Positions 38,420 to 57,543 are shown, counted from the first letter of the stretch. The stretch is 64,000 bases of DNA from Phycisphaerae bacterium (GCA_046483505.1 JAWODB010000123.1:8371-72370); one strand, 5' to 3'. The notes: generated from the sequence alone by a model not told the origin. Made by a program: numbers and translations.

Positions 38420-38609
38420 GCAGCCTCGCTTTCGGACGGGAAAACGGTCCTCCCGCCGGCATTCTACACGGGAATCGGGCGGATGCAACCGCGTGGGCCG
38501 CGGCGGCAAGACTGCCCGCCGCGCACGAAGTGCGCGTGGTGGTGCCAGCGCGCTGACTACCAGTTCTCACACGGGGCGGTATGGGCATACCGGGACGCGT
38601 GGCAGGTCG

Positions 38610-40195: not shown

Positions 40196-40271
40196 GGGGG
40201 AGTAGCTCAGTTGGTAGAGCAACGGCCTTTTAAGCCGTGGGTCCAGGGTTCGAGTCCCTGCTCCCTCACCA
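40196..40271 (+). tRNA. tRNA-Lys (anticodon UUU)
   Basis: Cloverleaf folded by hand: acceptor gggggag/ctccctc, D-arm gctc-agttggta-gagc, anticodon stem acggc/gccgt with loop cTTTTaa, T-arm caggg-ttcgagt-ccctg. Encoded CCA. Confidence 0.85.
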
Positions 40272-40351
40272 GCAGGATTGCGGATTTCGGATTGCGGAGT
40301 TCGGATTCGAGATTCGCAATCGGAGCATCAAGACGAGAGACGAACGCACGT

Positions 40352-40426
40352 GGCCCCATCGTCCAGTGGTTAGGACACGGCCCTTTCAAGGCCGCGACAC
40401 GGGTTCGACTCCCGTTGGGGTCACCA
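40352..40426 (+). tRNA. tRNA-Glu (anticodon UUC)
   Basis: Acceptor ggcccca/tggggtc, anticodon stem cggcc/ggccg with loop cTTTCaa, T-arm acggg-ttcgact-cccgt. Encoded CCA. Confidence 0.85.
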
Positions 40427-40738
40427 TTGAAACGGGCGAAGCCCGTTTCAATGGTAGAGCAGGAGAACACGAGAAAGGAGAGAGGAGAGCACGGCCAGGA
40501 ACGACAAAGGCACAAACGGCTTGATGGCGCGGCGCCCCGTTCTCCTGCGGTCTACTCTCTACTTTCTACTGCCCTGGTCGTTGTCGTTTGACGTTGAATG
40601 GTAGCCCAGGCCGCAACACCGCATTCGCCCTTGACAACGCCGCCTGCACCGGGTTTATTGAATTGAAGGGACGCGGATTTGTCCGGCGGTCCACCTCGCG
40701 GGCCGCATGAGCCAATCCGAAATCCGCAATCGAATATT

Positions 40739-40814
40739 GGCCCCATCGTCCAGCGGTCTAGGACATGGCCCTCTCAAGGCCAAGACACGGGTTCGAGTCC
40801 CGTTGGGGTCACCA
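40739..40814 (+). tRNA. tRNA-Glu (anticodon CUC)
   Basis: Near-duplicate of the previous tRNA but with anticodon loop cCTCTCaa (CTC). T-arm acggg-ttcgagt-cccgt. CCA encoded. Confidence 0.85.
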
Positions 40815-40866: not shown

Positions 40867-41247
40867 CAAGCCTTTGCAAGGGGCCAAGTTAGAACCGGGC
40901 CCGGAATCCCGCCGATCCCCCGGTGCAACGCCGTGCGACCCAATGCGACCGTACGCTGCACCGCATTCTGCACCACTTCTTGACGGTCGGCACCCTGGGC
41001 CCGCACCTACGCCAACCGGAGACGCGCTCCGCGGTGCACGGCCGTCCGCGTTGCACCGCCCTGCACCCCTCACCGCATCGTCTGTCACAGCCGCCCGTTG
41101 CGTATTGTCCCATGATGCATCGCTCCCCGTTGATAGAACGCTATTGCACGTACGAGTCAACGTGGTAGCATGGGCTGGGTTGAGGATAGGCCGCGGGCCT
41201 CGTACAAGTTAGTGGAGGTCACTGGCCCGCACAGAAAGGGGTGCAGG

Positions 41248-44200
41248 ATGCGCTGTGCCGCGACAATACTCTTCCTTGTCGCCGCCCTTGCCGGTCCAGT
41301 GCGACCGGCCGATCGTCCGGCGGTCCCGCGTACGTCCATGCCAGAGCGGGTGCAGAAGATCTTTCGACGGGCCATCGAGACCTACCCCTACGACGGCCGC
41401 CGGAAGGCCGAGGAGCGGGCGAGGAACCTCGAGGCCCTCGACCAGATACGCGAGGGACCGTGGCCCGACCTCGGACGCTTGAAGCGCGTCCGCCTGCACT
41501 TCCACTCGGATTTGTATGAGAGGGACTTCACCGCGACCGCCTGGCGGGTCCACGCGGCCGAGGGCGCCGAAACGGACGGTCTCCTGCTGGTGGCACCGGA
41601 CCTGACGGCCCGCCCGTTCCCGGCCGGGGCGTTCACCCGTGTCGAGCCGGTCGACTATGCCGAGGAACTCGCCACCCTCGTCCGCGTTCTCGAGAAACCG
41701 GAGTCCGAACGGCCGGACGAGTGGGACCTGGTGCTGCTGCCGGGCGGAGGGGGCCACGCGATGCGGTTCCACAGCACAATTCTCCTGCTGCACCACGCTT
41801 ACGCTGCCGCCTGGCTCGGCCGGGAGGACGAGGCTGGCCGCCTCCTCCGCGAACTCCTCGGGGGCGGCGAGGCGGCCTTCGCCTACGCCTGCACGCGCCT
41901 GGGGGATCGCTGGTTCCTCTGGGGCACTCGGATGCTCAGCGAGGACCGTCCCTGGGCCGGCGTCCTCGACCAGTGGCGCGAAACGCTTCGTTACTTCCCC
42001 AACTGGCGGTATCCCGACCAACTGCGGGAGGTGGTGTCGCGGCTCGAGGAGCAGGTCCCCGAGATGGCCCGCTTGGCCGAGACCGACGTGGCCGACCCCG
42101 CTGCCTTGCCGCCCCAGGAGCGCATCGCTTGTTACGCCGCCCGGCTGCCGGAGGTGCGCGGCGCTCAGACCAGGATACCGGGTTCCGCCCGCGCGTTGCG
42201 GATGGGCCAGCGGACGCGCGTGAGCGACGCCCTCGTGGCCATCGGCCGGCCCGCCGTGCCCGCCCTCCTCGACCGCCTCGATGACCGCCGCATCACGCGG
42301 TCGGTGGCGGACAGCCTCGCCCCGAAGTTGGCCATCCTGCGGGTCCAGGACGTGGCCATCCAGTGCATCGAAGCCATTGTGGACCTGCAATTCTATAGAC
42401 CCTCGACCACCAGTTCATCCATGTCGAGCGAAGCGCCGCAGATCCGCGAGACGGTGATCGAGGATATACGAACCTGGTGGCAAGAGCACGGGCAGAAGTC
42501 GGCACTGGCCGGCTTCCTGGGTCGCCTGAACCAGACCGAGAACCTCCGCCGCCGGATTGCGACCCTCGGCAAGATCGAGGCCACGGACGCCGACGCCGTC
42601 GATTCGGTGGCCCGCCTGAAAGAGTGGGCCGTCGAGGCGAACCGGTCCGGGTTGCGGGACATCATCGAGGCGCTCCTGGAGCGGGGCGACACGTCCCTCC
42701 TGCCGGCGGCGATGGAGGCCGCCCGCCGGGCCCTCCGCGACGGACGCCTCGACTGCGTCCGCACGCTGCTCGACCACGGCGGTCCGGACGACTTCCGCGT
42801 CCTGCGCGAGGCGGTCGAACGCGAACGGGCCCGCGTCGCGGCCCCGGAATCGTCCGCCCTGCTGAAGTTCCTCCGGTATCACCTGCCGCGCGTGGACCGC
42901 CCCGTCGCCGTGCCGCTGCTCGTCGATTGCCTTGGCGACCGCCGGCTGACCAAGTCCCGCCAGGTTCTCGGCCGGAAGGAACGCCTCCGGTTCAGCGCCG
43001 CTGACGATTGCATGCAGGCGCTCATCGACCTGACCGGCCACGACGCGGGCTACCGCAAGAACGCCGACGCCGAGGCGAGGCTGGCCGCTATCGACCGCTG
43101 GCTCGCGTGGTGGAAGCGTGAGGGCCGGGAGGCATTCCTCGCCGCCCACCCGGCCGTGCGGAAAGTGGCCGAGGGCGGCGGCCGGCGCATCGCGCGCCTG
43201 GACCCGGCGGACCTCCCGCCGTCCATCTGGGTCCAGTGGGCCGATGCCGACACCCCCATCGCTTGCCGCGTGCCGCGAGAATCGCTCGTCCGCCTCTTCA
43301 CGCGGGGCGACGTGCAGGCGCGCGCCTTCACGGATGGGTCCGACGCGCCGCCCGCGCCCGGGGCCCGGCACGTCGATCATCACGGCCGGCCCGTCACACA
43401 GGCGCACCAGACGTTCCGATTCACAAGCCGCGATGCCGCATGGCGATGGTTCGAACAGGCCCACCCTCTACCGGCGGAGACCGAGCCCGACCGGCAGCCG
43501 CTCGCCTGCCTCGGCGCAAGCGGCAATATCGAAAGCCTGACCCTCGCCCCGGGCGGCCGGGCCTGGCTGTGGGACGCGTATCCCAAGCAAGAGCCGGACA
43601 TCGTCCGCCGCCGGGTGGAAGAAGGAGCCGCCTCCGACCGGCCCGCCGTGACCGTCGGCGGGGCACAGATTCTCCTCATCGATCCCCGCGACCGCGTGTG
43701 GCTCACCCGGACGGGCGACGCCCACCGGCTGCTCGCCTGCGACCCGGCCGCGCGCCGCTGGCTCCACCGTGAGGCGGGCGACCGCGACGCCCCCGTGCCG
43801 ACGACCGACGCCAAGGGCCGCCGCCTCGATCCGCTCTTCACGGGATCGGCCTATGCGAGCCGGGCCGGCCGGCTCTTCTTCGCCGACCGCTTCGGCCTCC
43901 ACGTCCTCCACGATGACACGTGGTCGTACCACCCGCTGGTCCGCGCCGGTGAAGGCCGCAACCGGCCCGAGCGAACGGCCCCGGAAGGGCTGAGGAACCT
44001 GGAGTTCCGCGAGGACGAGGCAGGAACGCTGTACGTCTGGGCCACCGAGGGCAGGGACGTCGGCGGCCTGACGGTCTTCGACGGTCAGCGCTGGCACGAC
44101 CTCCCTGTTCCGGGCATCCCGAAGGACGTGGTGCCCGTCGGCCCCGGCCGGGCCTGGGTCATCGGCGAGGGGCCGCTCGTCTATCGGGTGGAGAACGGAC

Positions 44201-44784
44201 GGGTCGCGGCCGAGCACGGCCTTGCCGACCTGTTGCCCGAGGGCCTACGGGCCCGGACGGGCCGATTCGTCGCAGCAAGCGGCGGCCGCGTGTACTTCTA
44301 CCTCGAGGACGTGACCCGCGTTAGGCCCCTCGAGAAACGCGAGGGCGCCGCGATGGTCCTCCACCCCGACGGCACCGTCGAGACTCTCGGCGAGACGGCC
44401 GCTGCGTTCCTCCGTACCTATGCCCTCAGCCGCACCGTCGGCCCGGACGGATGGATCTGGCAGAGCGGCGACGGGTTCCTCCAAGGGATGTCGCCGGACG
44501 GGCGCCAGGTCCTTACTCGGCCGACGGTCCGGCACCTGACGCATATTCGCGTTCGGGCCGTCGACGAGGAGGGCACGCTCTACCTCCATGCCAGCCGGCA
44601 CTGGTGGCGGCTGCGACCGCCGGGAGAGGCCGAGCCCGCGGCCGCCCAGCTGCCGCGCCTGCCCGCCGTCCGCACCGGCATCCACGGCCTGGCCTGGCCG
44701 GACGACCGCGGCCGCATGTGGTGCACGTGGGATCGGCCGGACCACCGGGTGTCACATCGTTCTGGATCCCTTTGCCGCCAATGA
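41248..44784 (+). CDS. Large secreted hypothetical protein (HEAT/ARM-like helical repeats plus beta-propeller-like C-terminal half)
   Basis: ATG 41248 with AAAGGGG upstream. Signal peptide MRCAATILFLVAALAGPVRPA. 1178 aa, high GC3. Its TGA stop overlaps the next ATG (ATGA) at 44781-44784. Confidence 0.6.
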   Translation: MRCAATILFLVAALAGPVRPADRPAVPRTSMPERVQKIFRRAIETYPYDGRRKAEERARNLEALDQIREGPWPDLGRLKRVRLHFHSDLYERDFTATAWRVHAAEGAETDGLLLVAPDLTARPFPAGAFTRVEPVDYAEELATLVRVLEKPESERPDEWDLVLLPGGGGHAMRFHSTILLLHHAYAAAWLGREDEAGRLLRELLGGGEAAFAYACTRLGDRWFLWGTRMLSEDRPWAGVLDQWRETLRYFPNWRYPDQLREVVSRLEEQVPEMARLAETDVADPAALPPQERIACYAARLPEVRGAQTRIPGSARALRMGQRTRVSDALVAIGRPAVPALLDRLDDRRITRSVADSLAPKLAILRVQDVAIQCIEAIVDLQFYRPSTTSSSMSSEAPQIRETVIEDIRTWWQEHGQKSALAGFLGRLNQTENLRRRIATLGKIEATDADAVDSVARLKEWAVEANRSGLRDIIEALLERGDTSLLPAAMEAARRALRDGRLDCVRTLLDHGGPDDFRVLREAVERERARVAAPESSALLKFLRYHLPRVDRPVAVPLLVDCLGDRRLTKSRQVLGRKERLRFSAADDCMQALIDLTGHDAGYRKNADAEARLAAIDRWLAWWKREGREAFLAAHPAVRKVAEGGGRRIARLDPADLPPSIWVQWADADTPIACRVPRESLVRLFTRGDVQARAFTDGSDAPPAPGARHVDHHGRPVTQAHQTFRFTSRDAAWRWFEQAHPLPAETEPDRQPLACLGASGNIESLTLAPGGRAWLWDAYPKQEPDIVRRRVEEGAASDRPAVTVGGAQILLIDPRDRVWLTRTGDAHRLLACDPAARRWLHREAGDRDAPVPTTDAKGRRLDPLFTGSAYASRAGRLFFADRFGLHVLHDDTWSYHPLVRAGEGRNRPERTAPEGLRNLEFREDEAGTLYVWATEGRDVGGLTVFDGQRWHDLPVPGIPKDVVPVGPGRAWVIGEGPLVYRVENGRVAAEHGLADLLPEGLRARTGRFVAASGGRVYFYLEDVTRVRPLEKREGAAMVLHPDGTVETLGETAAAFLRTYALSRTVGPDGWIWQSGDGFLQGMSPDGRQVLTRPTVRHLTHIRVRAVDEEGTLYLHASRHWWRLRPPGEAEPAAAQLPRLPAVRTGIHGLAWPDDRGRMWCTWDRPDHRVSHRSGSLCRQ

Positions 44785-45247
44785 AGGAGCCGTCGTCGCC
44801 GGCGATAAGGCAGGAGGCCAGGCGCCTTGCCGCGGACCGTATCTGCTTCGAGATCGAGAGGAGCAGCGGCAAGGCCCGGGAGAACCTCCGCCGCGTGCTC
44901 GAAACGCCCGTTTTCAGCGGCTTGAACGAGGCGCCCGAGAAAGCGGAACCCAAAGAAGGCGGCGACGGGGACAGACGCGACCCAAAGGGGCGTCGCTCTG
45001 GGACGTGGAGTCGGGCCGCGAGATTCGTCGGCTGCATCACAACCTGGAGGGGATCGTGGGCTTCAGTCCCGACGGCAAGACCTTCATCGTGACCGAGGAG
45101 GGACGACCAGCCGCGCTGTACAGCGCGGAGACGGGAGAGGTCCTTCGGCGGTACGAGTTGGACGAGGCGCTCAGCGATGCAGCGGCCGGAGATGCGGACC
45201 GTGAGGGCCAGACCGGGGAGAAACCCCTCAGGGTCAAACCCGCGTGA
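44781..45247 (+). pseudogene. Frameshifted remnant of a WD40-repeat gene, translationally coupled to the upstream gene
   Basis: Frame 1 from the ATG: MKEPSSPAIRQEARRLAADRICFEIERSSGKAREN.... A second frame from ~44990 reads ...SLWDVESGREIRRLHHNLEGIVGFSPDGKTFIVTEEGRPAALYSAETGEVLRRY, a WD40 repeat resembling the intact WD40 gene at 59326. It ends where the repeat island begins. Confidence 0.35.
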
Positions 45248-45441
45248 CTGAACGCACACACCCCCTCTGTCACACGCGGCGACGGGTTGTGGGCTGGCGG
45301 AATGGCGTTGCACGCGGGAGAGCGCCGGCAGACCGAGGCCTGCAGCCCCCAAACCCGTGTGACTGACCGCCCCCGCCTCTCTGTCACACGCGGCGACGGT
45401 CCGGGGGCCCGCGGAATGCCGTTGCACGCGGGGGGGGGGGC
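45237..45441. repeat. Two tandem copies (period ~117 bp) of a structured repeat: GTGTGACTGACCGCAC..CTCTGTCACACGCGGCGACGGTCTGTGGGC..GGAATGCCGTTGCACGCGGGAGAGCG..; ends in an 11-nt poly-G
   Basis: Internal inverted repeat GTGTGAC...GTCACAC. Five further copies or partial copies follow, one between every pair of ORFs downstream. Confidence 0.6.
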
Positions 45442-45518
45442 AGCGTAGAGTGTGAGGAGTTGTATGCGTACACGCGTCGGTAGGTGAAGCGCTAACCTCT
45501 TGTGGCGGAGATGGGGCT

Positions 45519-46484
45519 ATGTCCAAGCGGAACGGCACCCTGAGCCGCGGTTCGCACCTGCTCCTCGTTGCCGGGTCTACAGGGATACTTGCCCTGCTTG
45601 CTGGCTGTAACGGCGAAAACCTGTTGGACAAGAATTACGCCTGGGTCGCGGAGATGATCGTCGAGCCGAGAATGAATACGCCCGTAGAGACGATTGAGGC
45701 AGCCCCCGTGCCCAGCGCCGAGACCGTCACGCTCGGAGAACTCAGGATCGACATGCCGGAGGGGTGGGAGGTTGGCGACGTCCGGCCCGAGGTGGATGAA
45801 ACGACAGGCGAGGTCGTGTGGTTCATGCTGCCGATCCACTCCGTCCCCGGCCTCGGAGAGTGCCGTCTCATGCTTCAGTATACGCGCGAGGCAACGTGGC
45901 CGATCGAGCCGGTCTTTTACCGAAAGGCCGTGGAGCCGTTCTACCCCGAGCCGGACTCGTTTTTCGGCGAGTATGCGTCAGACCTGGACCTGTTCGAGAC
46001 CATTCATAACCAGTTGCCGGGCATCATGGTGTACGTGCGGTCCCGTGACATAGTACGGAAGATTCTGGCTCGCCTGGCGCTCAAGCAGACGGTAATCGAG
46101 CACAGGCCGGCCAAACGGCTCGACACGCAACGGGCGCACGCCTTCCTGGCGATTAAGGAGAAGTGGTTGGTTGCCGAAGTGTTCGATGAAGTTGGCCGGT
46201 TCCGCGGCCTCATCACTGTGGGAACTGAAGCGTATGCTCGGGGAGCAGACGGGACCGGCGAAGACCAGAACGAGGTGAGCATCGCTGGCGCGTTGGCCCC
46301 GGCAGCAAAGAACCTGCTGGGCCCGGAACTGGCGACGCCAGGACTTACACGGCGCGTCGCCATGGACCTGGCCGAGGAGTTTTTCTTGCAGATCCTCGCG
46401 AACGCACACTTCGCGCCGTCACCTGAAGGCAAGAAGCCCGGTTTCCGATTCGTGCCTGCTCCGAAGTCTGGCGAGCGGCCGTGA
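45519..46484 (+). CDS. Hypothetical lipoprotein (cassette-like ORF 1)
   Basis: GGAG SD. MSKRNGTLSRGSHLLLVAGSTGILALLAGCNGE carries a lipobox. GC ~57% with many A/T-ending codons, unlike the ~70% GC core genes. Confidence 0.55.
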   Translation: MSKRNGTLSRGSHLLLVAGSTGILALLAGCNGENLLDKNYAWVAEMIVEPRMNTPVETIEAAPVPSAETVTLGELRIDMPEGWEVGDVRPEVDETTGEVVWFMLPIHSVPGLGECRLMLQYTREATWPIEPVFYRKAVEPFYPEPDSFFGEYASDLDLFETIHNQLPGIMVYVRSRDIVRKILARLALKQTVIEHRPAKRLDTQRAHAFLAIKEKWLVAEVFDEVGRFRGLITVGTEAYARGADGTGEDQNEVSIAGALAPAAKNLLGPELATPGLTRRVAMDLAEEFFLQILANAHFAPSPEGKKPGFRFVPAPKSGERP

Positions 46485-46512
46485 GCCATGAAGGCTCCTC
46501 ACCTACGAAAAC

Positions 46513-46650
46513 CCCGTTGCACGCGGCAGGCCGGTGTCAGGCCGAGGACACCAGGCTCAACCCCGTGTGACTGACCGCACCCAGCCCCTCGGTCACACGC
46601 GGCGACGGTCTGTGGGCTGGCGGAATGCCGTTGTGCGCGAGGGGTGGGGG
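46513..46650. repeat. Structured ~117-bp repeat copy (1.2 units)
   Basis: ccgttgcacgcggcaggccg...cgtgtgactgaccgcacccagcccctcggtcacacgcggcgacggtctgtgggctggcggaatgccgttgtgcgcgagg. Confidence 0.6.
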
Positions 46651-46678
46651 CGGTAGTGTGGTCTGATGCACGGCCACA

Positions 46679-47020
46679 GTGCCAATGGCGCGTTCCAAGG
46701 ATTCTCCCGTGACTCGAGGGAATAGGAATCTGCTGATTGGCTGGGCGGCGAGTTCGCTGTCACCTTGGCTGCTCACCTCCCTTGCCTTCATCGTCTCGGT
46801 CCTGGTGGATGTTGACCTTTGGCCTGCTGACCCGGGGCTTTCCCTGTTAGTCCTCGATGTTCTTGGCTTGGCGGGTGGCGTGTGCTGTGCTTTCGCGATG
46901 CGCTTGCCACCGTGGACCCGCGCGTTGATCGCGTTCGGCACGCTTCCTTTACTGGCGATAGGCCATTTCATGACTCTTCTCATGGTGATGCAGTTTGGCG
47001 ATTTCAGCGGGATACAGTGA
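46679..47020 (+). CDS. Small hypothetical membrane protein (cassette-like ORF 2)
   Basis: GTG at 46679 or ATG at 46685. 3-4 predicted transmembrane helices (LLIGWAASSLSPWLLTSLAFIVSVLV...). Strongly atypical codon usage (cgt, gat, tct, aat, att). Confidence 0.45.
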   Translation: MPMARSKDSPVTRGNRNLLIGWAASSLSPWLLTSLAFIVSVLVDVDLWPADPGLSLLVLDVLGLAGGVCCAFAMRLPPWTRALIAFGTLPLLAIGHFMTLLMVMQFGDFSGIQ

Positions 47021-47085
47021 CCCCATGAGACACCATCCCACGCATGCTTTTGCCGTCTCACGGTTGCCTGGTCCACGCGCCCGCC

Positions 47086-47210
47086 CAATGCCGTTGCACG
47101 CGGGAGAGCGCGGGCAGGCCGAGCCCAGCATAGCCGCACCCGTGTGACCGAACGCACCGCCTCTCCGTCACAGGCAGCGACGGTCTGTGGGCCCGAGGAA
47201 TGCCGTGCGG
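47086..47210. repeat. Structured ~117-bp repeat copy
   Basis: aatgccgttgcacgcgggagagcgcgggcaggccgagcccagcatagccgcacccgtgtgaccgaacgcaccgcctctccgtcacaggcagcgacggtctgtgggcccgaggaatgcc. Confidence 0.6.
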
Positions 47211-47222
47211 AGGAGACTTGCC

Positions 47223-47690
47223 ATGAGGAAACGCAGTGGCGTAAATCCGGGGCGGGTAGCCTCGGTCCTAATGTGGGCCCTGTGCTCCCTCGAATTCGGC
47301 TGTTGTATGTTCCCAATGGACGGCCTTGTTGAGCTCGAAGGGAGAGTGGTGGAGGCGGCGACAGACCTCGGCCATTTTGAGCCGACAGAAAGCATGCCGC
47401 CGGAAACAGTCGAAAACATTGAGGGGGCAACGGTGGAACTCTGGACGAGAGATGGGACGAGGAGGTTGGCATCATGGACCACCCAGAAGGGTGATGCTGG
47501 CTATTTTGATGTGGGTTATACAGGCAAGTACGAGCCTGGACGGGAGTACATTCTCCGCGTGTCTGCCCCAGACTATCAGGCGTTGGAGGCGCGAATACAT
47601 ATGGAGCGGCATGGATACGGAGTAATATACCTGGCCCCCTCGGGTACGGAAGACGCCGAACAGAGTACTGCCGAGAGCCCACCCAAGTAA
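47223..47690 (+). CDS. Hypothetical exported protein (cassette-like ORF 3)
   Basis: ATG 47223, just past the repeat: MRKRSGVNPGRVASVLMWALCSLEFGCCMFPMDG.... The track start 47187 lies inside the repeat. Possible carboxypeptidase-regulatory-like beta-sandwich region (VELWTRDGT...YILRVSAPDYQ). Confidence 0.45.
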   Translation: MRKRSGVNPGRVASVLMWALCSLEFGCCMFPMDGLVELEGRVVEAATDLGHFEPTESMPPETVENIEGATVELWTRDGTRRLASWTTQKGDAGYFDVGYTGKYEPGREYILRVSAPDYQALEARIHMERHGYGVIYLAPSGTEDAEQSTAESPPK

Positions 47691-47804
47691 GGCGGGGCCG
47701 CTCAGTGGCCGCCAGCAGACCAGCGTGGAAATCCGGCTGTTGCCCAATACGCCGAGGCCCGGCGGCTGCTCGCGCAGCTGAAAATGAATGCGCCAACGCC
47801 AGCC

Positions 47805-47880
47805 TGTCTGTCACACGCGGCGACGGTCTGTGGGCCCGTAGAAGGGCGTTGCACGCACGGCGTGCGATGGTAGCATAGCC
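47805..47880. repeat. Partial copy of the structured repeat
   Basis: ctgtctgtcacacgcggcgacggtctgtgggcccgtagaagggcgttgcacgcacggcgtgcgatggtagcatagcc. Confidence 0.55.
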
Positions 47881-47946
47881 TTGGCGAACCGCGAACCGGC
47901 AACGAGTGTTGTGAGAAGCGGCCGCGAGCCGTCGGAGGTTGATGCG

Positions 47947-48729
47947 ATGGACGCGCCGGACGATCCGCACGCAGGTGCCGAGGCTGCCTCCAACGCCCCT
48001 GCCGCCCCGAGCGCCGCCGCCTCCGCCGGCGCGCACGCCAAGCCCAAGCCGAAACCCTCTGCTCTCGTCCTCGCCGTCATCGTCTTCTTCATCATCATGA
48101 GCGCACGCATCTACGACCTGGGCCTGTGGCGGCCCGTTCTGCTCCTACACGGGCTCTTCTACGGTGGCCTGACAAGCGTGCCGATTGCCGCCCTGTGCCT
48201 CGTGCCGCAACTGCCCGTGCCGCGACGCTTCAAGTCCGGTGGCCTTCGGCGGGTGGTCGCGTTCACCCTTCCGGCCGTGGTTCTGGCGATGCTGATGGTC
48301 TGGCACGGGCTGCCGTCCACGGTACTCGGCAACATGCTGGGCAACGAGCACTTCGCCGCGCTTCCGCCGTCCGCCAGCGACGTCAAGGTGGAAGGGTGGA
48401 CGACCGGATTCTGCTACGAGGTGTGGCTGCGCTTCACGGCCTCGCCGGAAGACGTGGAGGCGTTCCTTGCAGCCTCCCCCGAGTTACGGGACGTCGAACC
48501 GGAACACTTCAACCGCGACCGGATGCTCTTGCTTCGACCTCGTGGCCAAGCGTCCGACGCGGACCTGGATGCTGACGGTCCGCATGCGTTTGCCCAGCGC
48601 AGCCCGTTCGCTCCGTCGTGGTACGCCCCGGAGATTCGCGAGAAAGGCAGGGTGTACTCTTCGCCGTCCGGATACAATGTGATCGTAAACGACGCGACGC
48701 ATACTGTTTTCATCTACAATGCCGATTAG
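47947..48729 (+). CDS. Hypothetical membrane protein (cassette-like ORF 4)
   Basis: First ATG at 47947 (the track start 47881 is TTG). Three transmembrane helices (ALVLAVIVFFIIMSARIY..., LLLHGLFYGGLTSVPIAALCLV, VVAFTLPAVVLAMLMVW), then a soluble C-terminal domain. Confidence 0.45.
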   Translation: MDAPDDPHAGAEAASNAPAAPSAAASAGAHAKPKPKPSALVLAVIVFFIIMSARIYDLGLWRPVLLLHGLFYGGLTSVPIAALCLVPQLPVPRRFKSGGLRRVVAFTLPAVVLAMLMVWHGLPSTVLGNMLGNEHFAALPPSASDVKVEGWTTGFCYEVWLRFTASPEDVEAFLAASPELRDVEPEHFNRDRMLLLRPRGQASDADLDADGPHAFAQRSPFAPSWYAPEIREKGRVYSSPSGYNVIVNDATHTVFIYNAD

Positions 48730-48810
48730 CCTGACCGGGTGAGTCGTTGCCTGGGGCTTGCCCCCCGGTAGCCACCTTGCCGCTTGCCCCCGCCCTCACG
48801 CGCCCACACC

Positions 48811-49015
48811 ATGCCGTGTCACGCGGGAGAGCGTGGGCAGGTTGAGCCCAGCATAGCCGAACCCGTATGACTGACCGACCAGCCCCTCTGTCACACGCGG
48901 CGACGGTCTGTGGGTTGCGGAATGCCATTGCACTCGGGGAGCGCGCACAGGCCGAGGCTAGCAGGCCCGAACCCATGTGAGGGAGCACGCACCACCTGTC
49001 TGTGACACGAGGCGG
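48811..49015. repeat. About 1.7 copies of the structured repeat, terminal copy degenerate
   Basis: atgccgtgtcacgcgggagagcgtgggcaggttgagcccagcatagccgaacccgtatgactgaccgaccagcccctctgtcacacgcggcgacggtctgtgggttgcggaatgccattgcac... Confidence 0.6.
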
Positions 49016-49641
49016 TCCGGCCGGCACCACGAGCCCTCCTGCGGCTCGAACTGCCGCAGGTACGCGCGGTTGTCCCGGGCCCAGCCGCGGACCTGCATCT
49101 CGACCGAGTACCCGTCCACGCCGTAGGTGTGGGCGTCCTTGATGGCCATGCTGCCGTGGGCGCTGGAGGCCCCGAGCAGGCTCATCGCCACCGGGATGCC
49201 GTCGAGGGGCACGGCGAGTTTCAGGCCCGCGCCGCTCGTGACGCTGAACCCGTACGTCGGGAACGAGGCCCACGGGGCGCTCGGCCAGTCCGTCGGCTTC
49301 TCCGCCTCGGCCGGGAACTTCCAGTGGTGCGGCGTGTCGGCCCGGTCGCCGATGCCGTGGGAGTGGAGGTAGAACTCCCGGTACGCCTCGGGCTGGAGTC
49401 GCACGAGCATCTGCTCCAAAGGAAGGAACCCTCGCTGCTCGTACACCTCGACCTGCTTCTCGACCGGCGTCTGGACGAAGTCCGTCGCGACCCGGTCCGC
49501 CAGGCCCTTCTCCAGCCACCGCCACTCGGGCGTCTCGGAGGTCATCTGGAAGTTGAACACCGCCACGTTCGTGGCGGCGGAGACAGCGGGCACCGCCACC
49601 AGAAGAATCCCGCATGCGATGAATCGTGAAATAACCCTCAT
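48958..49641 (-). CDS. Secreted hypothetical protein with a CsgG/LpoB-like N-terminal module (last gene of the minus-strand operon)
   Basis: Signal peptide MRVISRFIACGILLVAVPAVSA, then ATNVAVFNFQMTSETPEWRWLEKGLADRVATDFVQ. The first ~165 bp are ~90% identical at DNA level to the 5' end of the gene starting at 54111. The 3' end runs into the repeat, so the true stop is uncertain. Confidence 0.5.
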   Translation of the reverse strand: MRVISRFIACGILLVAVPAVSAATNVAVFNFQMTSETPEWRWLEKGLADRVATDFVQTPVEKQVEVYEQRGFLPLEQMLVRLQPEAYREFYLHSHGIGDRADTPHHWKFPAEAEKPTDWPSAPWASFPTYGFSVTSGAGLKLAVPLDGIPVAMSLLGASSAHGSMAIKDAHTYGVDGYSVEMQVRGWARDNRAYLRQFEPQEGSWCRPDRLVSQTGGACSLTWVRAC

Positions 49642-49671: not shown

Positions 49672-52600
49672 TCATTCGATGGTAAACGTCACCGGCTCGC
49701 ATTCGACGCGAAACGTGTCCGACGGGAACTCGGCCGTAGCCGTGCACGTCCCCTTGAACCCCTGTGGAATCTTCCAGCCGTCACCCATGTCGTCCCATTG
49801 TGTGTCAAATGTCCAGGTACGGTGATCCGATTGCCGAGTGATAACAATGCGAACGGGATCGTAATCCTTGTGGGCCTCGTACGTGTGGAAGCGTTGGACG
49901 TACACCCCGCGCCCCCGACAATCGCGAAGGCGGATGTCGAAAGACAGCGCGCCGTCCTTCTGCTTTACGCGTACCGTCCCGCGGAGAGGGGTGCCGATGG
50001 GGAAGGCGGTCTCCGTCCCTTCCTGGAGGTCCACCGTGACACCGGGGGTGAAGTTCGTGAACCGGGGGTGCATTTCGACGTTCGGGGATCTGGAATCCGG
50101 CCGGGCGGAAACGTACTCACGGTAGTGGTGAACCGTATAACGGCCCGCCGGAACGGTCACCGGTTCTTCCCCGCCGTTTACGCTGATGACGGAACCCCGG
50201 CCACGTAAGACCAACCGCCAAAAGGGGTGGTTCAGATGAAGGCGAGCCAGCGGTCCCTGGTAAGGCTCTGCCGTTACACGCCGCCCCTCGTCGACCACGC
50301 GCACGTTCCACCATCGTCCATCCGCCTGAATCGGCTGGCCGTAGTGGCCCCGGGAGGCTCGTACAGGGTCTTTCCCACGGGTGTAGATATAGACGTAGTC
50401 GCCCTCGATACGGTCGTCCCCGTAGACCGACACCACGCGCGGTTCATCCGTGACGCGAAGCGTGCGGTTGGCATCGACGAAGCGCACCCAGTATACCCGG
50501 TCACCGAATTGGCAGCGTCCCTCGGCGGCGGTCCCCGCGCAGTATCCGAGATAGGGCTCTTCCCCATCCGTCGAGTAGGTTAAGTTAAACCAGGCCTGAA
50601 TCTGCCGACCCGCAAGAGAAAGGGAGACACCATACTCCTCGAACCGGTACTGGTATTTTTCCTTGGCCGGAATGTGCTGGATAGAACTCCGGGGCACAAC
50701 AGGAGCGCTATTGAAATCGCCCCGCCCCGTCGTATCGATGCGCACCACGTCGAAGTGGGGCGCATCCGGTTCCTTCGAGTCGAACGCCAATGCAACCGTG
50801 GTCTCTCCTTTTTGAACCTTCGCCACGACGGCGTGCGGGTTGACCGTGCCGTCGCCGGGAACCGGTTCTCGGAAGTGCTCGGCACCTTTCAAGTAAACAT
50901 ACGGCCGGTAAAGGGACTGTTGCGGCGGAATGGGCAGCCACTTCAATTGGCCGACTGGGGAGGACCCCGCGGACCCGATCGGCTGCTTGGAAGGGTCCTG
51001 CTGCAGGAAACGGTTTCTTGGAGTACGATCCCTCCGCAACGCCTGTCTCACCTTGCCGTCTGCACCCGTCATCCTATAGCGTTGGGGCTCCCGGCTCTTC
51101 ACCAACGCCCTCCGATCTTTTCGCGCCCCATCGGTTGAATCAACGCACGCCTGGCGCAACGGGACCAGTGTCGGCCCCCAGGTCACGAACGGTCCGTAAC
51201 TGGAACGGGGCGATGTCTTGGGCGCCTCACCGACCCAGCCAATCAGATACCCCCGTCCCGGCGCATAAACAAACGTATGAGGACCGCTAGCGACGCTCGG
51301 CAGTGTCGCCCATCGGCGCCAGGTTTCCGATTCGGTAATGGTCAACAGCGTCATGAGGGAGCGGCTGTAAAGCCCTTTCCGAAGGAGAACAAGCGGAGAC
51401 TGAAGTTGAACAAGCAGCGCGGGCCCATTCGTGTCGCGCGCCGCAGTGACGCCGCACACAAATTCTTCCACCGCAGACGGGGGAAGGCTGAAGACGGTCT
51501 CCGACCTCGCTCCCCGTCCGTCGGCGCTGGGCACATGGCGGACGACATGATATTCATAGATCAAATTAGGCCATGTCGTCTTATATTTGTGTGCGCGCTC
51601 AGCCGCATAGGCTTCGATTCCACCACCCCCGGAGGGAAGCAGATCAACGCTCGTGACTTCTGCCCCCTGATGCGCGGGTTGAAGTTGCATGACCCGTTTC
51701 CACTGATAGCCGTGGCGGCTGGAATAAATGGCAATTCCCCCTTTCAGATCCGCCTTGGCCCACCAGAGCCGTCCCCGGCCGTCTTGCACTAAAGCGTGAT
51801 GGCCGGGCGTCGTTTCGTCAGTAATCTGAACCGGTGCGCTCCAGTGCACGAAGTCCCGCGACCAGGAGATGTAGGGAAGGCGGAGGTGGCGGGCATCCCG
51901 GTCCGAGAGAAAGGCCAACAGGAAACGCCCCGCTTCGTCGCGTATCAGACGGGGGGCGTACTCGCACCACCCGCTCGAGAGGGGAAGATCGAGTTTGCGC
52001 GGCGGCGAGAACGTCTCTTCGTCGGTACATACCGAACGCCACAGGTCTCCACGTTGGGACCAGATGACCCGGATCGCCTGTTCGTCGGCTTCCACGGCGG
52101 GGGGGCAATTCGAACGCTCATGCAGCCGCACGTCGTAGCCGAGGTAATCCGGGGCAACACCGGCCGTCTTCCACTTCTCCCATCCGCTTCCTTCCTTGTA
52201 CGGCAGCCTGCCCACCAACCGTGTTACTTCGCCCTCTTTCACGCGAACGGTGGTTTCCCAGTTCGTGCGAAGGGCTACCTGCTTGTCGGGCGTCGGCAGA
52301 TACACGCAAGCCCTTAGGCTGGGGCTTATACGCAATCCATGAGCGAACAATTGTGTTATAGAGGTCATCAACCCGGTCTCGGGCCATGGACCCTGATCCG
52401 CCGGTAGAAAACCGATCCGATGTTCGCCAGGCGGCAGAGGCCCAATGAGCCCGGGGAACCAGCGGGCAAAGATTCCATCCACGTGGACCATGAAGCGATG
52501 GGTATCCGCGCACCGCACGTCAATCGCCCCAGGCCGGGCGACACGCCGAAATGCGGGTTCCACCCGCACGCCGCGAACCACGACCGGCCCGCCCGTGGGT

Positions 52601-54111
52601 CCCTTGGCGACAAATCGGCAACACGCTCGCAGAATGCAGTGCCTGGGAAGGTCTTTCCAAAACACGCCATGCTCGCGCGCCGGGGCAAGCGCTGCACTCA
52701 CCGGAGGACAAATGCGAAACAGACACGAGGGATCACGCCCCGCCGGCGTGATTCCCACCTCCACCGTTGCGCCTGAACCCTCGGCCAAAGGGCAGAACCG
52801 AGCCGACTCGAACACATGCCCGTCGGGAGCCGCGAGAACCAACGGGATCTCCACCGACGTCGGAGCAAATTCCAGACGCTTATCCCGATTCCGGCGCTCC
52901 TCGCCGGCAATGCGTGTCGGCTCAGGAAACTCATAAACCCGAGCAGTGGCGTCCTCATCGAACGCCAAGAGCATCCGTTCACACCACCCCCACTCTCTGT
53001 TCACCAGAGTGTCCCGCCCGAACGCCTCGCCCGTAAGGGCTTGATGCAGGAGCACATTCCTCCTGCAAACACAGGGTCTACGGTAAGAGACGGGAGCGCG
53101 AGCAGGTGTACCGTAGTAGTCTTGCCACAAGCAGGGTCGCGAACGCTGTGCTACCTCTTTGTGGCGTCCAAGTTGACCGAGTAGTTCAAACGACTTGAAT
53201 TCAAACCAGTCCTCCGCTTCCATAAACCCATCTCGTCCCCAAGAGCCTCCTTCTTTGATCCTTGCATTCGGATACCGCCGGGCAAGAGCCTCATAGCGCC
53301 GAAGCAGGTCCTCGCCCGACGCCCCGCTCGCCTCGTACGTGTGGACGTACTCGACCATCGCGTCGCCCAGCCGCGGGTGGGCCGTGTCCAGGTAGACGAA
53401 CTTCTCCAGCATCCGACGCGCGTGTCCGTACCGGTGGAGAAAATAATACATCTTCCCCGTCCAGTACACCGCCTCCACGTACCCCGGGTCCTCGCGGGAG
53501 GCCTGGCGGAACTTCAGCCACCCTTCGGCATACCGGCCCTGGTCGTACAGGTCCATGCCCTCGTAAAGCGCCTTGGCCGCGGGGAGGCTGCGCGTCCAGA
53601 CGGGCAGGCGCTCCAGGATCGCCGCCGCCGGCTTCTTCGAGAACCACGCGAGCAACTCCGCCGACAGGCGACGCTGGAGGTCCAGCACCTCGGCGGCCTT
53701 GCCCTCCACTTCCTTTCGCGCCACCTCCTTGCGCGAATCCACCTCCACGATCTGGCCCGTCAGGTGGATGCCGCCGTCGGTGGTGACGCGGTACACGCCC
53801 GTGACGAGGTATTCGATCTTCAGGGCCTTCCGGACCTTCCCCATCCGGTCGGGGTCGGAGGTGGCCATCTCCGGCACCCACCGCATCTCGGCGGCGAGCA
53901 TCTGCATCCGGTCGCGCGCGACCACGTCCAGGTCGGCGTCCTGGACGAAGTCCGTCGCGATCCGGTCCGCCAGGCCTTTCTGGAGCCACCCCCATTCCGC
54001 CGTCTCGCTGGTCATCTGGAAGTTGAACACCGCCACGTTCGTGGCGGCGGAGGCCGGGCTTCCGGCCAGGACCACGACGGCCAGGACGGCAACAAGAGAT
54101 GAGGCTTTCAT
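49672..54111 (-). CDS. Giant (1479-aa) secreted protein: CsgG/LpoB-like N-terminal module, TPR region and long uncharacterised beta-rich body
   Basis: Signal peptide MKASSLVAVLAVVVLAGSPASA, then ATNVAVFNFQMTSETAEWGWLQKGLADRIATDFVQ...VVARDRMQMLAAE (CsgG/LpoB-like). TPR-like region YEGMDLYDQGRYAEGWLKFRQASREDPGYVEAVYWTGKMYY. High GC3 throughout. Confidence 0.65.
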   Translation of the reverse strand: MKASSLVAVLAVVVLAGSPASAATNVAVFNFQMTSETAEWGWLQKGLADRIATDFVQDADLDVVARDRMQMLAAEMRWVPEMATSDPDRMGKVRKALKIEYLVTGVYRVTTDGGIHLTGQIVEVDSRKEVARKEVEGKAAEVLDLQRRLSAELLAWFSKKPAAAILERLPVWTRSLPAAKALYEGMDLYDQGRYAEGWLKFRQASREDPGYVEAVYWTGKMYYFLHRYGHARRMLEKFVYLDTAHPRLGDAMVEYVHTYEASGASGEDLLRRYEALARRYPNARIKEGGSWGRDGFMEAEDWFEFKSFELLGQLGRHKEVAQRSRPCLWQDYYGTPARAPVSYRRPCVCRRNVLLHQALTGEAFGRDTLVNREWGWCERMLLAFDEDATARVYEFPEPTRIAGEERRNRDKRLEFAPTSVEIPLVLAAPDGHVFESARFCPLAEGSGATVEVGITPAGRDPSCLFRICPPVSAALAPAREHGVFWKDLPRHCILRACCRFVAKGPTGGPVVVRGVRVEPAFRRVARPGAIDVRCADTHRFMVHVDGIFARWFPGLIGPLPPGEHRIGFLPADQGPWPETGLMTSITQLFAHGLRISPSLRACVYLPTPDKQVALRTNWETTVRVKEGEVTRLVGRLPYKEGSGWEKWKTAGVAPDYLGYDVRLHERSNCPPAVEADEQAIRVIWSQRGDLWRSVCTDEETFSPPRKLDLPLSSGWCEYAPRLIRDEAGRFLLAFLSDRDARHLRLPYISWSRDFVHWSAPVQITDETTPGHHALVQDGRGRLWWAKADLKGGIAIYSSRHGYQWKRVMQLQPAHQGAEVTSVDLLPSGGGGIEAYAAERAHKYKTTWPNLIYEYHVVRHVPSADGRGARSETVFSLPPSAVEEFVCGVTAARDTNGPALLVQLQSPLVLLRKGLYSRSLMTLLTITESETWRRWATLPSVASGPHTFVYAPGRGYLIGWVGEAPKTSPRSSYGPFVTWGPTLVPLRQACVDSTDGARKDRRALVKSREPQRYRMTGADGKVRQALRRDRTPRNRFLQQDPSKQPIGSAGSSPVGQLKWLPIPPQQSLYRPYVYLKGAEHFREPVPGDGTVNPHAVVAKVQKGETTVALAFDSKEPDAPHFDVVRIDTTGRGDFNSAPVVPRSSIQHIPAKEKYQYRFEEYGVSLSLAGRQIQAWFNLTYSTDGEEPYLGYCAGTAAEGRCQFGDRVYWVRFVDANRTLRVTDEPRVVSVYGDDRIEGDYVYIYTRGKDPVRASRGHYGQPIQADGRWWNVRVVDEGRRVTAEPYQGPLARLHLNHPFWRLVLRGRGSVISVNGGEEPVTVPAGRYTVHHYREYVSARPDSRSPNVEMHPRFTNFTPGVTVDLQEGTETAFPIGTPLRGTVRVKQKDGALSFDIRLRDCRGRGVYVQRFHTYEAHKDYDPVRIVITRQSDHRTWTFDTQWDDMGDGWKIPQGFKGTCTATAEFPSDTFRVECEPVTFTIE

Positions 54112-54146: not shown

Positions 54147-55259
54147 CTACTTGCCGGACGGCTTCGCGGCCTCCTTCAGGGCCTTGAGCCGCTCGGCGGC
54201 CTCGCGGGCGGCGTCCGTGCCGGGGAACCGCTCGATGAGTTTCTCGTAGACGCGGCGGGCGGCATCGTGCTTGCCGGCCTTCTCGAACATCTTGCCCAAC
54301 TGCAGGTCGCTGTGGGCCCGGAGGCGGCTCTTCTCCTCATCGGTCATTGTTTCGTCGGGCGTCTCGGGCTCGGCCTCCTCTGCCGCCGCGGGAGACGCCC
54401 CTTCCTCCGTCGCACCAGGCCCGAGGCGCGGAATGCCGCTCTGTTTCTCCCCCGCGCGGGCCTCGCCGAGCAGTTTACGGACCGCCGCGGCCCGGTCGGA
54501 GTCCGGGCACCGCTGGAGGTACTTCTCCCACTCGATGGCCGCATGGGCCGGCTCCTTCAGCCGGTCGTGCGCCATGCCGCACCAGTAGTGGGCCTCCACG
54601 TAGTCGGGGTCCAGGTCCATCGTCCGCATGAACTGCATGATGGCGGCGTCCATGTTCCCGGCGTAATAGTGGCTGATGGCCTTGGCAAAGTGCAGGCTCG
54701 CCACGGGCGAGGCGTCGAGTTTGGCCGGATCGATCTCGGGCAGCGGCAGGGCCATGCCCTTGCCGAGGCCCCGCGCCAGGCCGATGGCCGTCTCCATCAG
54801 GTCCACCGGCCGGAACGCCGTCTGCCCGGCGGCCGCCACGCGCTCGGACGCGATGTCGATGGCCTGGAGGCCGGCGGTCAACTTGCCCTGCACGAGGAAC
54901 AGCCGCCCCGTGAGGACGGTGTCGGCCTCCAGGAGTTTGCCCGCCGCCAGGGCGTACTCTTGCCCCGTCAGGCCCTTCAGCGAGACGGCCTGTTCCGCCG
55001 TCAGGGCGAGCAGCCGCTGCCGTTCGACCACGGTGATGTGGTCCTGCTCGGCCAGGAGGACGGCCACCAGGTCGCCGAGGCCGGCCGCGGCGGGGTCGTA
55101 CTGCTCCTCTCGGGTCTCGTTCTCCAGGGGAACCGCGAAGACGGTGCGCCGGCTCTTCGCCGGCGCCGTCGCCTCCGCCGCGGAAGGCGCGGGCGCGGGC
55201 GCCGCGGCCGCGAGAAGGACGAGTGGCAGGATCCGTACGAGGGTCGTGATCGGTCTCAT
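54147..55259 (-). CDS. Secreted TPR-repeat protein with a CsgG/LpoB-like N-terminal module
   Basis: Signal peptide MRPITTLVRILPLVLLAAAAPAPA. RTVFAVPLENETREE...LGDLVAVLLAEQDHITVVERQRLLALTAEQ, followed by TPRs (AISHYYAGNMDAAIMQFMRTMDLDPDYVEAHYWCGMAH). The ATG overlaps the upstream stop (ATGA). Confidence 0.65.
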   Translation of the reverse strand: MRPITTLVRILPLVLLAAAAPAPAPSAAEATAPAKSRRTVFAVPLENETREEQYDPAAAGLGDLVAVLLAEQDHITVVERQRLLALTAEQAVSLKGLTGQEYALAAGKLLEADTVLTGRLFLVQGKLTAGLQAIDIASERVAAAGQTAFRPVDLMETAIGLARGLGKGMALPLPEIDPAKLDASPVASLHFAKAISHYYAGNMDAAIMQFMRTMDLDPDYVEAHYWCGMAHDRLKEPAHAAIEWEKYLQRCPDSDRAAAVRKLLGEARAGEKQSGIPRLGPGATEEGASPAAAEEAEPETPDETMTDEEKSRLRAHSDLQLGKMFEKAGKHDAARRVYEKLIERFPGTDAAREAAERLKALKEAAKPSGK

Positions 55260-56422
55260 TCCTCACCCCCTTTCGCGCCCGGCGGCGCGTAGCCGACGAG
55301 CCGCCGGCCGACCGCCACGCCGAGCACGTGCCCGGCCTTCTGGAGGGCCGTCTTGCCGGCGGTGGCTTCCGAGAGGTCGACCGCCCGGCGGGTGGCGCGG
55401 TCCGCCACCAGGATGTCGCCCGTGTGCCGGTCGATGAGGTTGATCTCGGCCCGGCCCGTACAGGTCACCAGGTCGCCGGTACGGAGGGCGAATTCGCTGA
55501 ACGCCTCGCCTACGACCACCACGTCCGCCCGGCGGAGGGCGTCGGGCCACGGGGCGTCGGCGTTCTTCATCCGCCGCTTCGCCCAATCGGCCAGATCGTT
55601 CTGGCCGGCGTCGACCACCTTGAACCCGCAGGCCACGAGGATGCGCTTGATCTCGGTCTCGGCCGCCGGGTCGATGACCACCACCCGCGTCAGGTGGACC
55701 TCGGGAATCACGACCGCCACCGTCGGCCGGGGCTTGTCGCCGAGGGCCTTGCGGATCGCGGCCACGGGGTCCGGCCGCGGTTCGGCGTCCGGCAGGAGAC
55801 CGGGGCCCTGCTCGCGGATCAACTCGGCCACCTGTTCGGACATCTCGAAGATCGCCTCCGACATCTCCTTCGTCGGCTCGGCCTTGGTGATGGTGCCCTT
55901 GACCTTGCCGGTCTCGACGCCCACGACCTTCGTCACGAACATCAGGTGTTTGCCCATCGTGAAGGTCTTGCCCATGACCATGAGGCGTGCGCCGAGGAGT
56001 TTGCCGACCTCGACGGCCTTCTCGTGGTCCGTCAGGCCGCGGAGTTTGAGTTTCTGCTCCTCCAGGATCCGGTCGAGTTTGGCCCGTTCGACGAGGTCGA
56101 AGGCCTCCTCGACGCTGAGGCGGACGGTCAGGAGGTCGGCGATCTGCCGGCCGAGGTCCCGCTCGCCGGTCGTTCCGGTCTCGTAAGCGAGGATGGCGAT
56201 GGTTGGCTTGGCCTTCCCTTTCGCCTCCGCCGCGGCTTCCGGCTTGGCTTCCGCCGCGGCTTCGGGCTTGACCCCGGCTGCGGCTTCCGGCTTGACCTCG
56301 GCCGCGGCTTCCGGCTTGGCCTCGGCCTTGCCGGCCTCCGCGGCGTGGGACCGGTCCGTCGCGGCCAGGCTCGGTACCATCGTTGCCAGCGCGAGCAGCG
56401 TTACGGCCAATGACCGTCTCAT
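55256..56422 (-). CDS. Secreted protein with a KPEAAAE tandem-repeat linker, a CsgG/LpoB-like module and a C-terminal alpha/beta domain
   Basis: Signal peptide MRRSLAVTLLALATMVPSLAA. AEAKPEAAAEVKPEAAAGVKPEAAAEAKPEAAAEAKGK encoded by 24-nt tandem repeats at 56215-56340. TIAILAYETGTTGERDLGRQIADLLTVRLS...LVERAKLDRILEEQKL. ATGA overlaps at both ends. Confidence 0.65.
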   Translation of the reverse strand: MRRSLAVTLLALATMVPSLAATDRSHAAEAGKAEAKPEAAAEVKPEAAAGVKPEAAAEAKPEAAAEAKGKAKPTIAILAYETGTTGERDLGRQIADLLTVRLSVEEAFDLVERAKLDRILEEQKLKLRGLTDHEKAVEVGKLLGARLMVMGKTFTMGKHLMFVTKVVGVETGKVKGTITKAEPTKEMSEAIFEMSEQVAELIREQGPGLLPDAEPRPDPVAAIRKALGDKPRPTVAVVIPEVHLTRVVVIDPAAETEIKRILVACGFKVVDAGQNDLADWAKRRMKNADAPWPDALRRADVVVVGEAFSEFALRTGDLVTCTGRAEINLIDRHTGDILVADRATRRAVDLSEATAGKTALQKAGHVLGVAVGRRLVGYAPPGAKGGEE

Positions 56423-57507: not shown

Positions 57508-57543
57508 CGCCCGTTCCCCCCGCGGCGGGCGCGGGCGGAGGCG

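Follow-up and report, generated by a model that had tools for sequence, protein, structure and literature searches.

The locus considered here lies in a 64,000-nucleotide (64-kb) stretch of chromosomal DNA from an uncultured Phycisphaerae bacterium (GCA_046483505.1 JAWODB010000123.1:8371-72370), hereafter the window, and consists of four open reading frames (ORFs) separated by copies of an intergenic repeat. The repeat is real, non-random and clustered. It was detected by nhmmer, repeat finding and pattern search as six copies plus one degenerate copy, all on the plus strand between 45.2 and 49.0 kb, and no copy was found in the remaining ~60 kb of the window. By pattern search, the core 28-mer gave six matches in the window, compared with zero expected by chance. 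An initial annotation made from the sequence alone had described a ~117-bp unit occurring six times. The recurrence was borne out, while the true period proved to be 114 bp, and a degenerate copy (c7) joined the six. The array has a cassette-like layout, and it is not an integron.

Anatomy of the repeat array

The consensus derived from 13 aligned copies reads ...CCCTCACGCGCCCGCAGAATGCCGTTGCACGCGG / GAGAGCGCGGGCAGGCCGAG..GCCCGAACC / CGTGTGACTGACCGCACCCAGCCCCTCTGTCACACGCGGCGACGGTCYGKGGGCC.GCG / GAATGCCGTTGCACGCGG / GGGGTGGGGNGG TAGNNT. Two blocks, TCTGTCACACGCGGCGACGG and GAATGCCGTTGCACGCGG, were nearly invariant, and the rest of the unit drifted. The latter block forms the "a-box", GCCCGC.GAATGCCGTTGCACGCGG, of ~20-30 bp, which was found at both ends of every inter-ORF copy. 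An inter-ORF copy thus amounts to ~1.2 units because this short box stands at both ends, and each ORF module is therefore flanked by direct a-boxes. At the two ORF-less junctions (c1/c2 and c6/c7), two units are joined by a single a-box. The block TCTGTCACACGCGGCGACGG has an inverted partner, CCCGTGTGAC, and the internal inverted repeat GTGTGAC/GTCACAC noted in the initial annotation is present in the unit. The motif GTYRCACGCGG occurs three times per unit, once inverted, and the spacer between a-boxes is constant at ~95 bp. Copies in the window were 75-87% identical in pairwise comparison, and their 5' ends were ragged, with four different truncation points. The repeat copies and ORFs are arranged as follows.

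45218-45319, plus strand: repeat copy c1, whose a-box runs directly into c2; an ORF-less, "empty" junction
45297-45465, plus strand: repeat copy c2, with a -35-like TTGCAC (45422-45427), a G11 tract (45430-45440) and a -10-like TAGAGT (45446-45451)
45519-46484, plus strand: ORF1, a 321-aa predicted lipoprotein with an LAGC lipobox; GC content at third codon positions (GC3) 0.76
46503-46664, plus strand: repeat copy c3, with TTGTGC (46631-46636) and TAGTGT (46654-46659)
46685-47020, plus strand: ORF2, a 111-aa predicted membrane protein without a family match; GC3 0.67
47078-47224, plus strand: repeat copy c4, 3'-truncated, without TTGCAC or a -10 element, continuing without a gap into the ORF3 Shine-Dalgarno sequence and its ATG
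47223-47690, plus strand: ORF3, a 155-aa predicted exported or lipoprotein-like protein with a weak DUF4249 match (E=2e-4); GC3 0.62
47780-47882, plus strand: repeat copy c5, limited to the 3' half, in which TTGCAC (47849-47854) and TAGCAT (47871-47876) are present
47947-48729, plus strand: ORF4, a 260-aa membrane protein with a conserved C-terminal domain
48801-48916 (to 48945), plus strand: repeat copy c6, whose a-box runs into c7; the second "empty" junction
48916-49014, plus strand: repeat copy c7, degenerate, overlapping the final 18 codons of a convergent gene

The description of four co-oriented, unrelated ORFs punctuated by a repeat therefore held, as all four lie on the plus strand and share no mutual similarity. 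The further statement that exactly one copy stands between neighbouring ORFs was too strict: the ORF3/ORF4 junction carries a half copy, and ORF4 is followed by one copy and a partial one. GGAG-type ribosome-binding sites precede ORF1, ORF3 and ORF4. Judged from their sequences, all four products look like envelope proteins. The GC content of the ORFs was 57-66%, compared with 64% for the region and 70-72% for the core, and their GC3 was 0.62-0.80 versus 0.87-0.96 in the surrounding genes. The composition check thus confirmed the lower GC reported initially, with a range in place of the uniform ~57% first given.

Few relatives of these proteins were found. Among 5.8 billion proteins, ORF1 had no homologue besides itself, and neither ORF1 nor ORF2 had a match in Pfam, PHROGs or PADLOC. 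For ORF4, four homologues with 56-61% identity were found in repeat-free contigs with other neighbours, and its AlphaFold model was poor (predicted local distance difference test score, pLDDT, of 59). One of these homologues, in contig L127 of another organism (ENA ERZ27256827 k141_23895), lies between 285-bp direct repeats (810-1094 and 2056-2338) that are 77-86% identical. Each repeat is a copy of the upstream gene's 3' end with the spacer that follows it, the trace that a duplication or a Campbell-type insertion leaves. A phage or defence island was also considered and rejected: no island protein had a PHROGs or PADLOC match, and neither viral contigs nor phage records nor plasmids contained the repeat.

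Related copies, folding and the 3' end

Pattern scans and nhmmer recovered the repeat in three other Planctomycetota contigs.

L031 (Ga0114922_10010975): metagenome contig, three copies in 8.2 kb
L016 (Ga0180431_10108767): metagenome contig, two copies in 2.3 kb
L032: contig of a metagenome-assembled genome (MAG) labelled "uncultured Planctomycetaceae", one copy

The remaining 25 metagenome matches and all 94 viral matches were chance matches to the short pattern. No further member was found by nhmmer in 1.1 Mb of unrelated loci, and no similar repeat was found in plasmid and phage collections or viral contigs. Among the papers listed by a keyword search on planctomycete intergenic repeats, none was relevant, and Rfam likewise yielded no prior description. 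The wider search suggested by the initial annotation thus did uncover more copies, all intergenic and all sharing orientation with an adjacent gene. Clustering was seen in two of the three outside contigs, and the copies number 7 within 4 kb of the window, 3 within 5 kb of L031 and 2 within 1.2 kb of L016. The outside copies bracket unrelated genes, which encode HEAT-repeat, beta-helix-like, DUF4190 and FG-GAP proteins, and the bracketed gene of L016 had a GC3 of 0.62 versus 0.96 in its neighbour. A tblastx comparison of L031 and L016 with the window gave only noise.

Copy c2 was 95%, 93% and 89% identical to L031a, L031b and L032a, respectively, compared with 75-87% to its own array neighbours. 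Since c2 is closer to outside copies than to its neighbours, the array does not derive from recent local duplication. The copies would instead be either constrained or drawn from a shared mobile source. Within L031, the copies at 2368-2505 and 5296-5475 are 98% identical over ~100 nt, far closer than any other pair, and flank an 880-aa HEAT-repeat gene of opposite orientation. The locus thus seems to have undergone recombination or an insertion recently.

The initial annotation had described an integron-cassette-like array and raised a lineage-specific attC variant as one proposal. attC sites and integrons are defined by an imperfect palindrome over the length of the site (R''-L''/L'-R'), folding single-stranded with extrahelical bases, by RYYYAAC/GTTRRRY core sites and by an integrase (PMC4889954). 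None of these features was found, and the proposal was rejected. When four copies were folded on both strands, the folding energy was no better than that of shuffled sequences in three of them on either strand (z = +0.2 to +0.7; the exceptional copy gave -3.0/-1.1), and the structures differed between copies. The consensus fold was limited to a hairpin of 8-10 bp with a positive covariation term. In the GTGTGAC/GTCACAC hairpin of nine copies, 11 cells were broken and none was compensated, so that every substitution breaks a pair. No RYYYAAC/GTTRRRY pair spaced 45-140 nt apart occurs on either strand of 45200-49050, and the unit ends are direct rather than inverted repeats. Recombinase, transposase and REP-associated tyrosine transposase (RAYT) domains were absent from the sizeable ORFs of the window and from the gene calls of the 3.2 kb past its right end (67 kb in total). 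The remark in the initial annotation that canonical core sites and intI are missing was accordingly upheld. Rfam scans, with gathering thresholds and at E<=1, returned three tRNAs and two chance-level matches; the attC model is not part of Rfam. The evidence agrees with the fallback offered at the time, in which a lineage-specific repeat delimits a variable locus.

Most integron cassettes lack promoters. The present ORFs share with them a unidirectional, unrelated and repeat-bounded arrangement, as the initial annotation had argued, whereas the repeats here appear to carry promoters. In six of the six copies with an intact a-box and a co-oriented ORF downstream (c2, c3, c5, L031a, L016b and L032a), a TANNNT hexamer follows TTGCAC or TTGTGC after 16-18 nt and lies 15-70 nt upstream of the start codon. 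Its variants are TAGAGT, TAGTGT, TAGCAT and TAGGGT. The hexamer was found in none of the four copies without a co-oriented downstream ORF (c1, c6, L031b and L016a), and the near-identity of L031a and L031b stops exactly at it. This pattern points to the conserved 3' end, TTGCAC-N16-18-TAGNNT, as a candidate promoter for the next ORF.

The spacer between the -35-like and -10-like elements of ORF1 contains the G11 tract; no other homopolymer in the window reaches 8 nt. The tract reads G10 in two independent Logan assemblies (SRR31818007/8), either through a sequencing artefact or, possibly, through slipped-strand phase variation of promoter spacing. A promoter of the extracytoplasmic function (ECF) type, with GGAAT or TGTCACA at -35 and a CGTC-type -10, was tried and rejected, as no suitable -10 element was present at 16-17 nt. 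The region upstream of the nearby ECF sigma gene (58980-59330) has only a 9-mer in common with the repeat.

Rearranged flanks and neighbourhood

The array is set in a rearranged patch with the following components.

41170-44784, plus strand: large gene R6X20_06595, a 1204-aa ORF annotated as a 1148-aa hypothetical protein, 3'-truncated at ~44742
44711-44756: left arm of an inverted repeat, 46 nt, 78% complementary to the right arm
44781-45247, plus strand: two gene fragments, a 70-aa piece (44781-44990) and then, in another frame, an 85-aa WD40-like piece (44990-45247) reaching into c1
48958-49641, minus strand: 227-aa chimeric gene, 3'-truncated and convergent
49001-49045: right arm of the inverted repeat, which with the left arm brackets the whole island

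The homologues of the large gene, P0002 (1474 aa) and P0003 (1325 aa), align with it only up to 44742-44766, and their conserved C-terminus of ~335 aa is nowhere in the window. A tRNA cluster (40196-40814; Lys-TTT, Glu-TTC and Glu-CTC) lies just upstream of this truncated gene, with no integrase nearby. The 70-aa piece overlaps the large gene in an ATGA at 44781-44784, and both fragments have a GC3 of 0.80-0.84. The 85-aa piece matches the WD40 gene at 59326-60504 (E=2.5e-4). According to the initial annotation, the island had truncated a WD40 gene of an operon resembling the one that begins there. A WD40-like fragment does enter c1, but the genes that are clearly cut are those of 1204 and 227 aa.

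The 227-aa gene is chimeric. Its residues 1-57 are copied from the start of the adjacent 1479-aa gene (63% identical, rising to 89% over residues 21-57). Residues 55-205 correspond to positions ~60-210, in the N-terminal third, of an uncharacterised group of 400-680-aa proteins (568 matches) that has no Pfam match. The GC3 of the 227-aa gene drops from ~1.0 to 0.67 in the final 18 codons, where its sequence is c7 in reverse complement.

The bracketing inverted repeat matched at 27 of 34 positions, compared with 17.3 ± 1.5 and a maximum of 24 among 400 random window pairs. It is in frame in both truncated genes, which end in ...TWDRPDHRVSH and ...SWCRPDRLVSQ. Its outer part belongs to the native coding sequence of the large gene family, so that the right arm has the appearance of a left junction copied in inverted orientation. 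A simple inversion between the two arms was rejected: the missing 3' parts of both truncated genes were found nowhere in the window. None of the assemblies from the three runs contained the island in inverted form. At the left edge of the island, part of the core motif occurs as an inverted copy.

The neighbouring genes are housekeeping genes, such as those for MetRS, Rho, DAHP synthase, a sulfatase and two-component systems. The adjacent 1479-aa gene (49672-54111, minus strand) has a CsgG-like N-domain, a GC3 of 0.72 and no Pfam, PHROGs or PADLOC match. Beyond it, the genes within 54147-58979 (minus strand) encode an ECF sigma factor (58464-58979), proteins of 306 and 362 aa, a CsgG-like 388-aa protein and a TPR protein; the "1160-aa" ORF at 55256-58738 is a high-GC artefact. 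These genes are divergent from an operon for WD40, 922-aa and 795-aa (TPR) proteins at 59326-64000 (plus strand). CsgG-like N-domains occur in at least four proteins of the neighbourhood of the 1479-aa gene and the ECF sigma gene. Elsewhere in the window, the "hydrazine synthase alpha subunit middle domain" (PF18582) was detected in two large proteins, at 5763-8783 (plus strand, E=1.7e-20) and 35597-38509 (minus strand, E=5.8e-23), with no anammox context.

A proposed portable module and its alternatives

We tentatively propose, at a probability of about 45%, that the 114-bp unit is a portable promoter and recombination module bounding accessory envelope genes. The unit would be specific to a lineage within the Phycisphaerae or the Planctomycetota. 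Its 3' end, GAATGCCGTTGCAC-N16-18-TAGNNT, would act as a sigma-70-type promoter firing into the next ORF, and the upstream block with its inverted partner would be a probable protein-binding site. Since each ORF module lies between direct a-boxes, recombination between a-boxes or whole units could delete modules, insert them via a circle or swap them. The two empty junctions may be what is left when a-boxes flanking a module recombine, the footprint expected after module loss. The outcome would be a set of accessory genes, each with its own promoter, that encode membrane proteins, lipoproteins and exported proteins with few or no homologues found and that lie in a rearranged patch flanked by two truncated, convergent genes. 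The repeat family with its distribution, orientation and conservation, the lack of attC features, the truncations and the bracketing inverted repeat are observed; that the repeats drive transcription, bind a protein and let cassettes turn over is what we infer.

Several observations weigh against this proposal. The hexamers agree with the consensus at only 7 of 12 positions, and that consensus is the one of Escherichia coli, planctomycete promoters being poorly known. A simple consensus promoter scan called none in the repeats. The contrast of 6/6 versus 0/4 is drawn from homologous, non-independent copies; moreover, c4 lacks the promoter end despite ORF3 downstream, and L031b and L016a keep the G-rich 3' end with no co-oriented ORF after them. 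The hairpin is a poor terminator, with an 8-bp stem, a loop of 19-20 nt and no U run, and a terminator scan found none in the repeats. As for turnover, the presence/absence polymorphism envisaged in the initial annotation was not seen: the array was identical and collinear in contigs from three independent sequencing runs (L001, L002 and L133). The sole difference from the window in those contigs, over the 8.8-kb and 4.6-kb contigs covered, was one base of the G11 tract.

Among known systems, the closest in working appear to be the "mobile regulatory cassettes" called PeSLs (promoter-early stem-loops). In T4-type phages, these promoter and stem-loop cassettes flank ORFans, recombine and form mini-circles (PMC2839356, PMC4122927). 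Such cassettes are characterized by a sigma-70-like promoter in each functional copy, a stem-loop that stops transcription coming from upstream, and a place beside non-essential genes in variable regions, where recombining copies yield indels or circles. Like them, the present repeat is short and intergenic, joins an inverted repeat to a (here predicted) sigma-70-like promoter, is clustered in what may be a variable region beside small genes mostly without known homologues, and is proposed to shuffle genes by recombination between copies. The differences are considerable. The present repeat resides in a Phycisphaerae chromosome instead of a phage and has no sequence similarity to PeSLs. Its unit is longer (114-170 bp) and carries the a-box twice, and its hairpin lacks covariation and is not believable as an intrinsic terminator. 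Indel polymorphism was not observed among the assemblies of the three runs.

Correia elements of Neisseria are likewise intergenic repeats of ~100-150 bp that can supply promoter elements to adjacent genes; they have 26-bp terminal inverted repeats and TA target duplications and are scattered in hundreds of copies in both orientations (PMC5039591). None of these latter traits (terminal inverted repeats, TA duplications, scatter or both orientations) was seen for the present repeat. Repetitive extragenic palindromes (REPs) are structure-conserved palindromes of 20-40 bp, dispersed genome-wide and linked to RAYT transposases. Together with the composite forms known as BIMEs (bacterial interspersed mosaic elements) and REPINs (paired REPs), they resemble the present repeat as lineage-specific intergenic repeats with an internal palindrome, sometimes in mosaic clusters. 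The palindrome here, however, is 8 bp of a 114-bp unit and does not covary, and no RAYT was found in the window. Integrons and their integrase-less cassette arrays (CALINs) share with the array unidirectional, unrelated ORFs, mostly without homologues, each with one delimiting repeat, and the same topology for a possible excision of an ORF-plus-repeat circle (PMC4889954). The array differs from them in having no attC fold, core sites or integrase, in its direct-repeat ends and in an apparent promoter for each ORF.

It is fairly unlikely that the repeat is instead a selfish, non-autonomous mobile element similar to REPs, REPINs or miniature inverted-repeat transposable elements (MITEs), spread by a transposase encoded elsewhere in the genome, with a chance location in intergenic DNA and a promoter-like end that is incidental or exapted, as in Correia elements. 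MITEs are characterized by terminal inverted repeats, a target-site duplication and sharp, constant ends. The unit has direct ends, ragged 5' truncations and no visible target-site duplication; its orientation always follows the neighbouring gene, and its copies are strongly clustered, the other 60 kb being free of them. The 67 kb covered contained neither a transposase nor a RAYT. On the other hand, a selfish repeat would suit the identity between assemblies (up to 95%), which exceeds that inside the array, as well as the internal inverted repeat, the triple GTYRCACGCGG motif and the inverted partial core motif at the left edge. The patchwork nature of the locus, with its two truncated genes, chimeric gene, two fragments and degenerate copy, could also be that of a passive relic, in which an ancestral promoter region was copied by local segmental duplications at a recombination-prone site, the ORFs were later replaced or decayed and the repeat has no function. 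This explanation is improbable, since the same repeat stands beside unrelated genes in three other assemblies, the array copies are not each other's closest relatives, and the block-wise conservation and the -10-like hexamer kept only before ORFs point to constraint.

Site-specific recombination, analogous but not homologous to that of integrons, would require a putative recombinase encoded elsewhere and acting on the a-box or core motif. The direct a-boxes of ~20-30 bp and the ~95-bp spacer with three motif copies do resemble recombinase binding sites; the two empty junctions, the 46-bp inverted repeat that brackets the island, and the finding of no detectable homologue for ORF1 and only four for ORF4 are compatible with it. 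However, no recombinase was found within 67 kb, no polymorphism was seen among the three runs, and the homologues of ORF4 occur elsewhere without the repeat. Furthermore, the a-box overlaps the -35-like hexamer, and its conservation can therefore be explained without recombination. We regard such a system as quite unlikely. A CALIN with divergent attC sites is very improbable. An intI gene is required for a complete integron and not for a CALIN, the ORFs are co-oriented and unrelated with one repeat between each, and the repeat length falls inside the attC size range. Nevertheless, the element is not an imperfect palindrome over its whole length (z ~0 on both strands in three of four copies), it shows no covariation and no R''/R' core-site pairs, its ends are direct instead of inverted, and neither intI nor an intI pseudogene lies nearby.

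A broader, unlikely reading is a chromosomal platform for gene capture and expression in Planctomycetota, integron-analogous but differently built. Its scaffold would consist of 114-bp units, each supplying a promoter and a crossover box of ~20-30 bp. Single-gene envelope modules would enter and leave this scaffold by a putative recombinase or by short-homology recombination via circular intermediates. In such a platform, the array would possibly be invertible or mobilisable via the 46-bp inverted repeat, and ORF1 expression might be phase-variable via the poly-G tract in its promoter spacer.

If the repeat were merely selfish, it would still be a new repeat family, of an ordinary kind. If the portable-module proposal is true, the construction of variable regions from a repeated promoter cassette plus an orphan gene, so far documented for T4-type phages, would extend to a bacterial chromosome of a poorly studied phylum. 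TTGCAC-N17-TAGNNT would be a first candidate promoter consensus for this Phycisphaerae lineage. In addition, TCTGTCACACGCGGCGACGG ... GAATGCCGTTGCAC would provide a sequence tag for locating arrays of accessory envelope genes in related MAGs.

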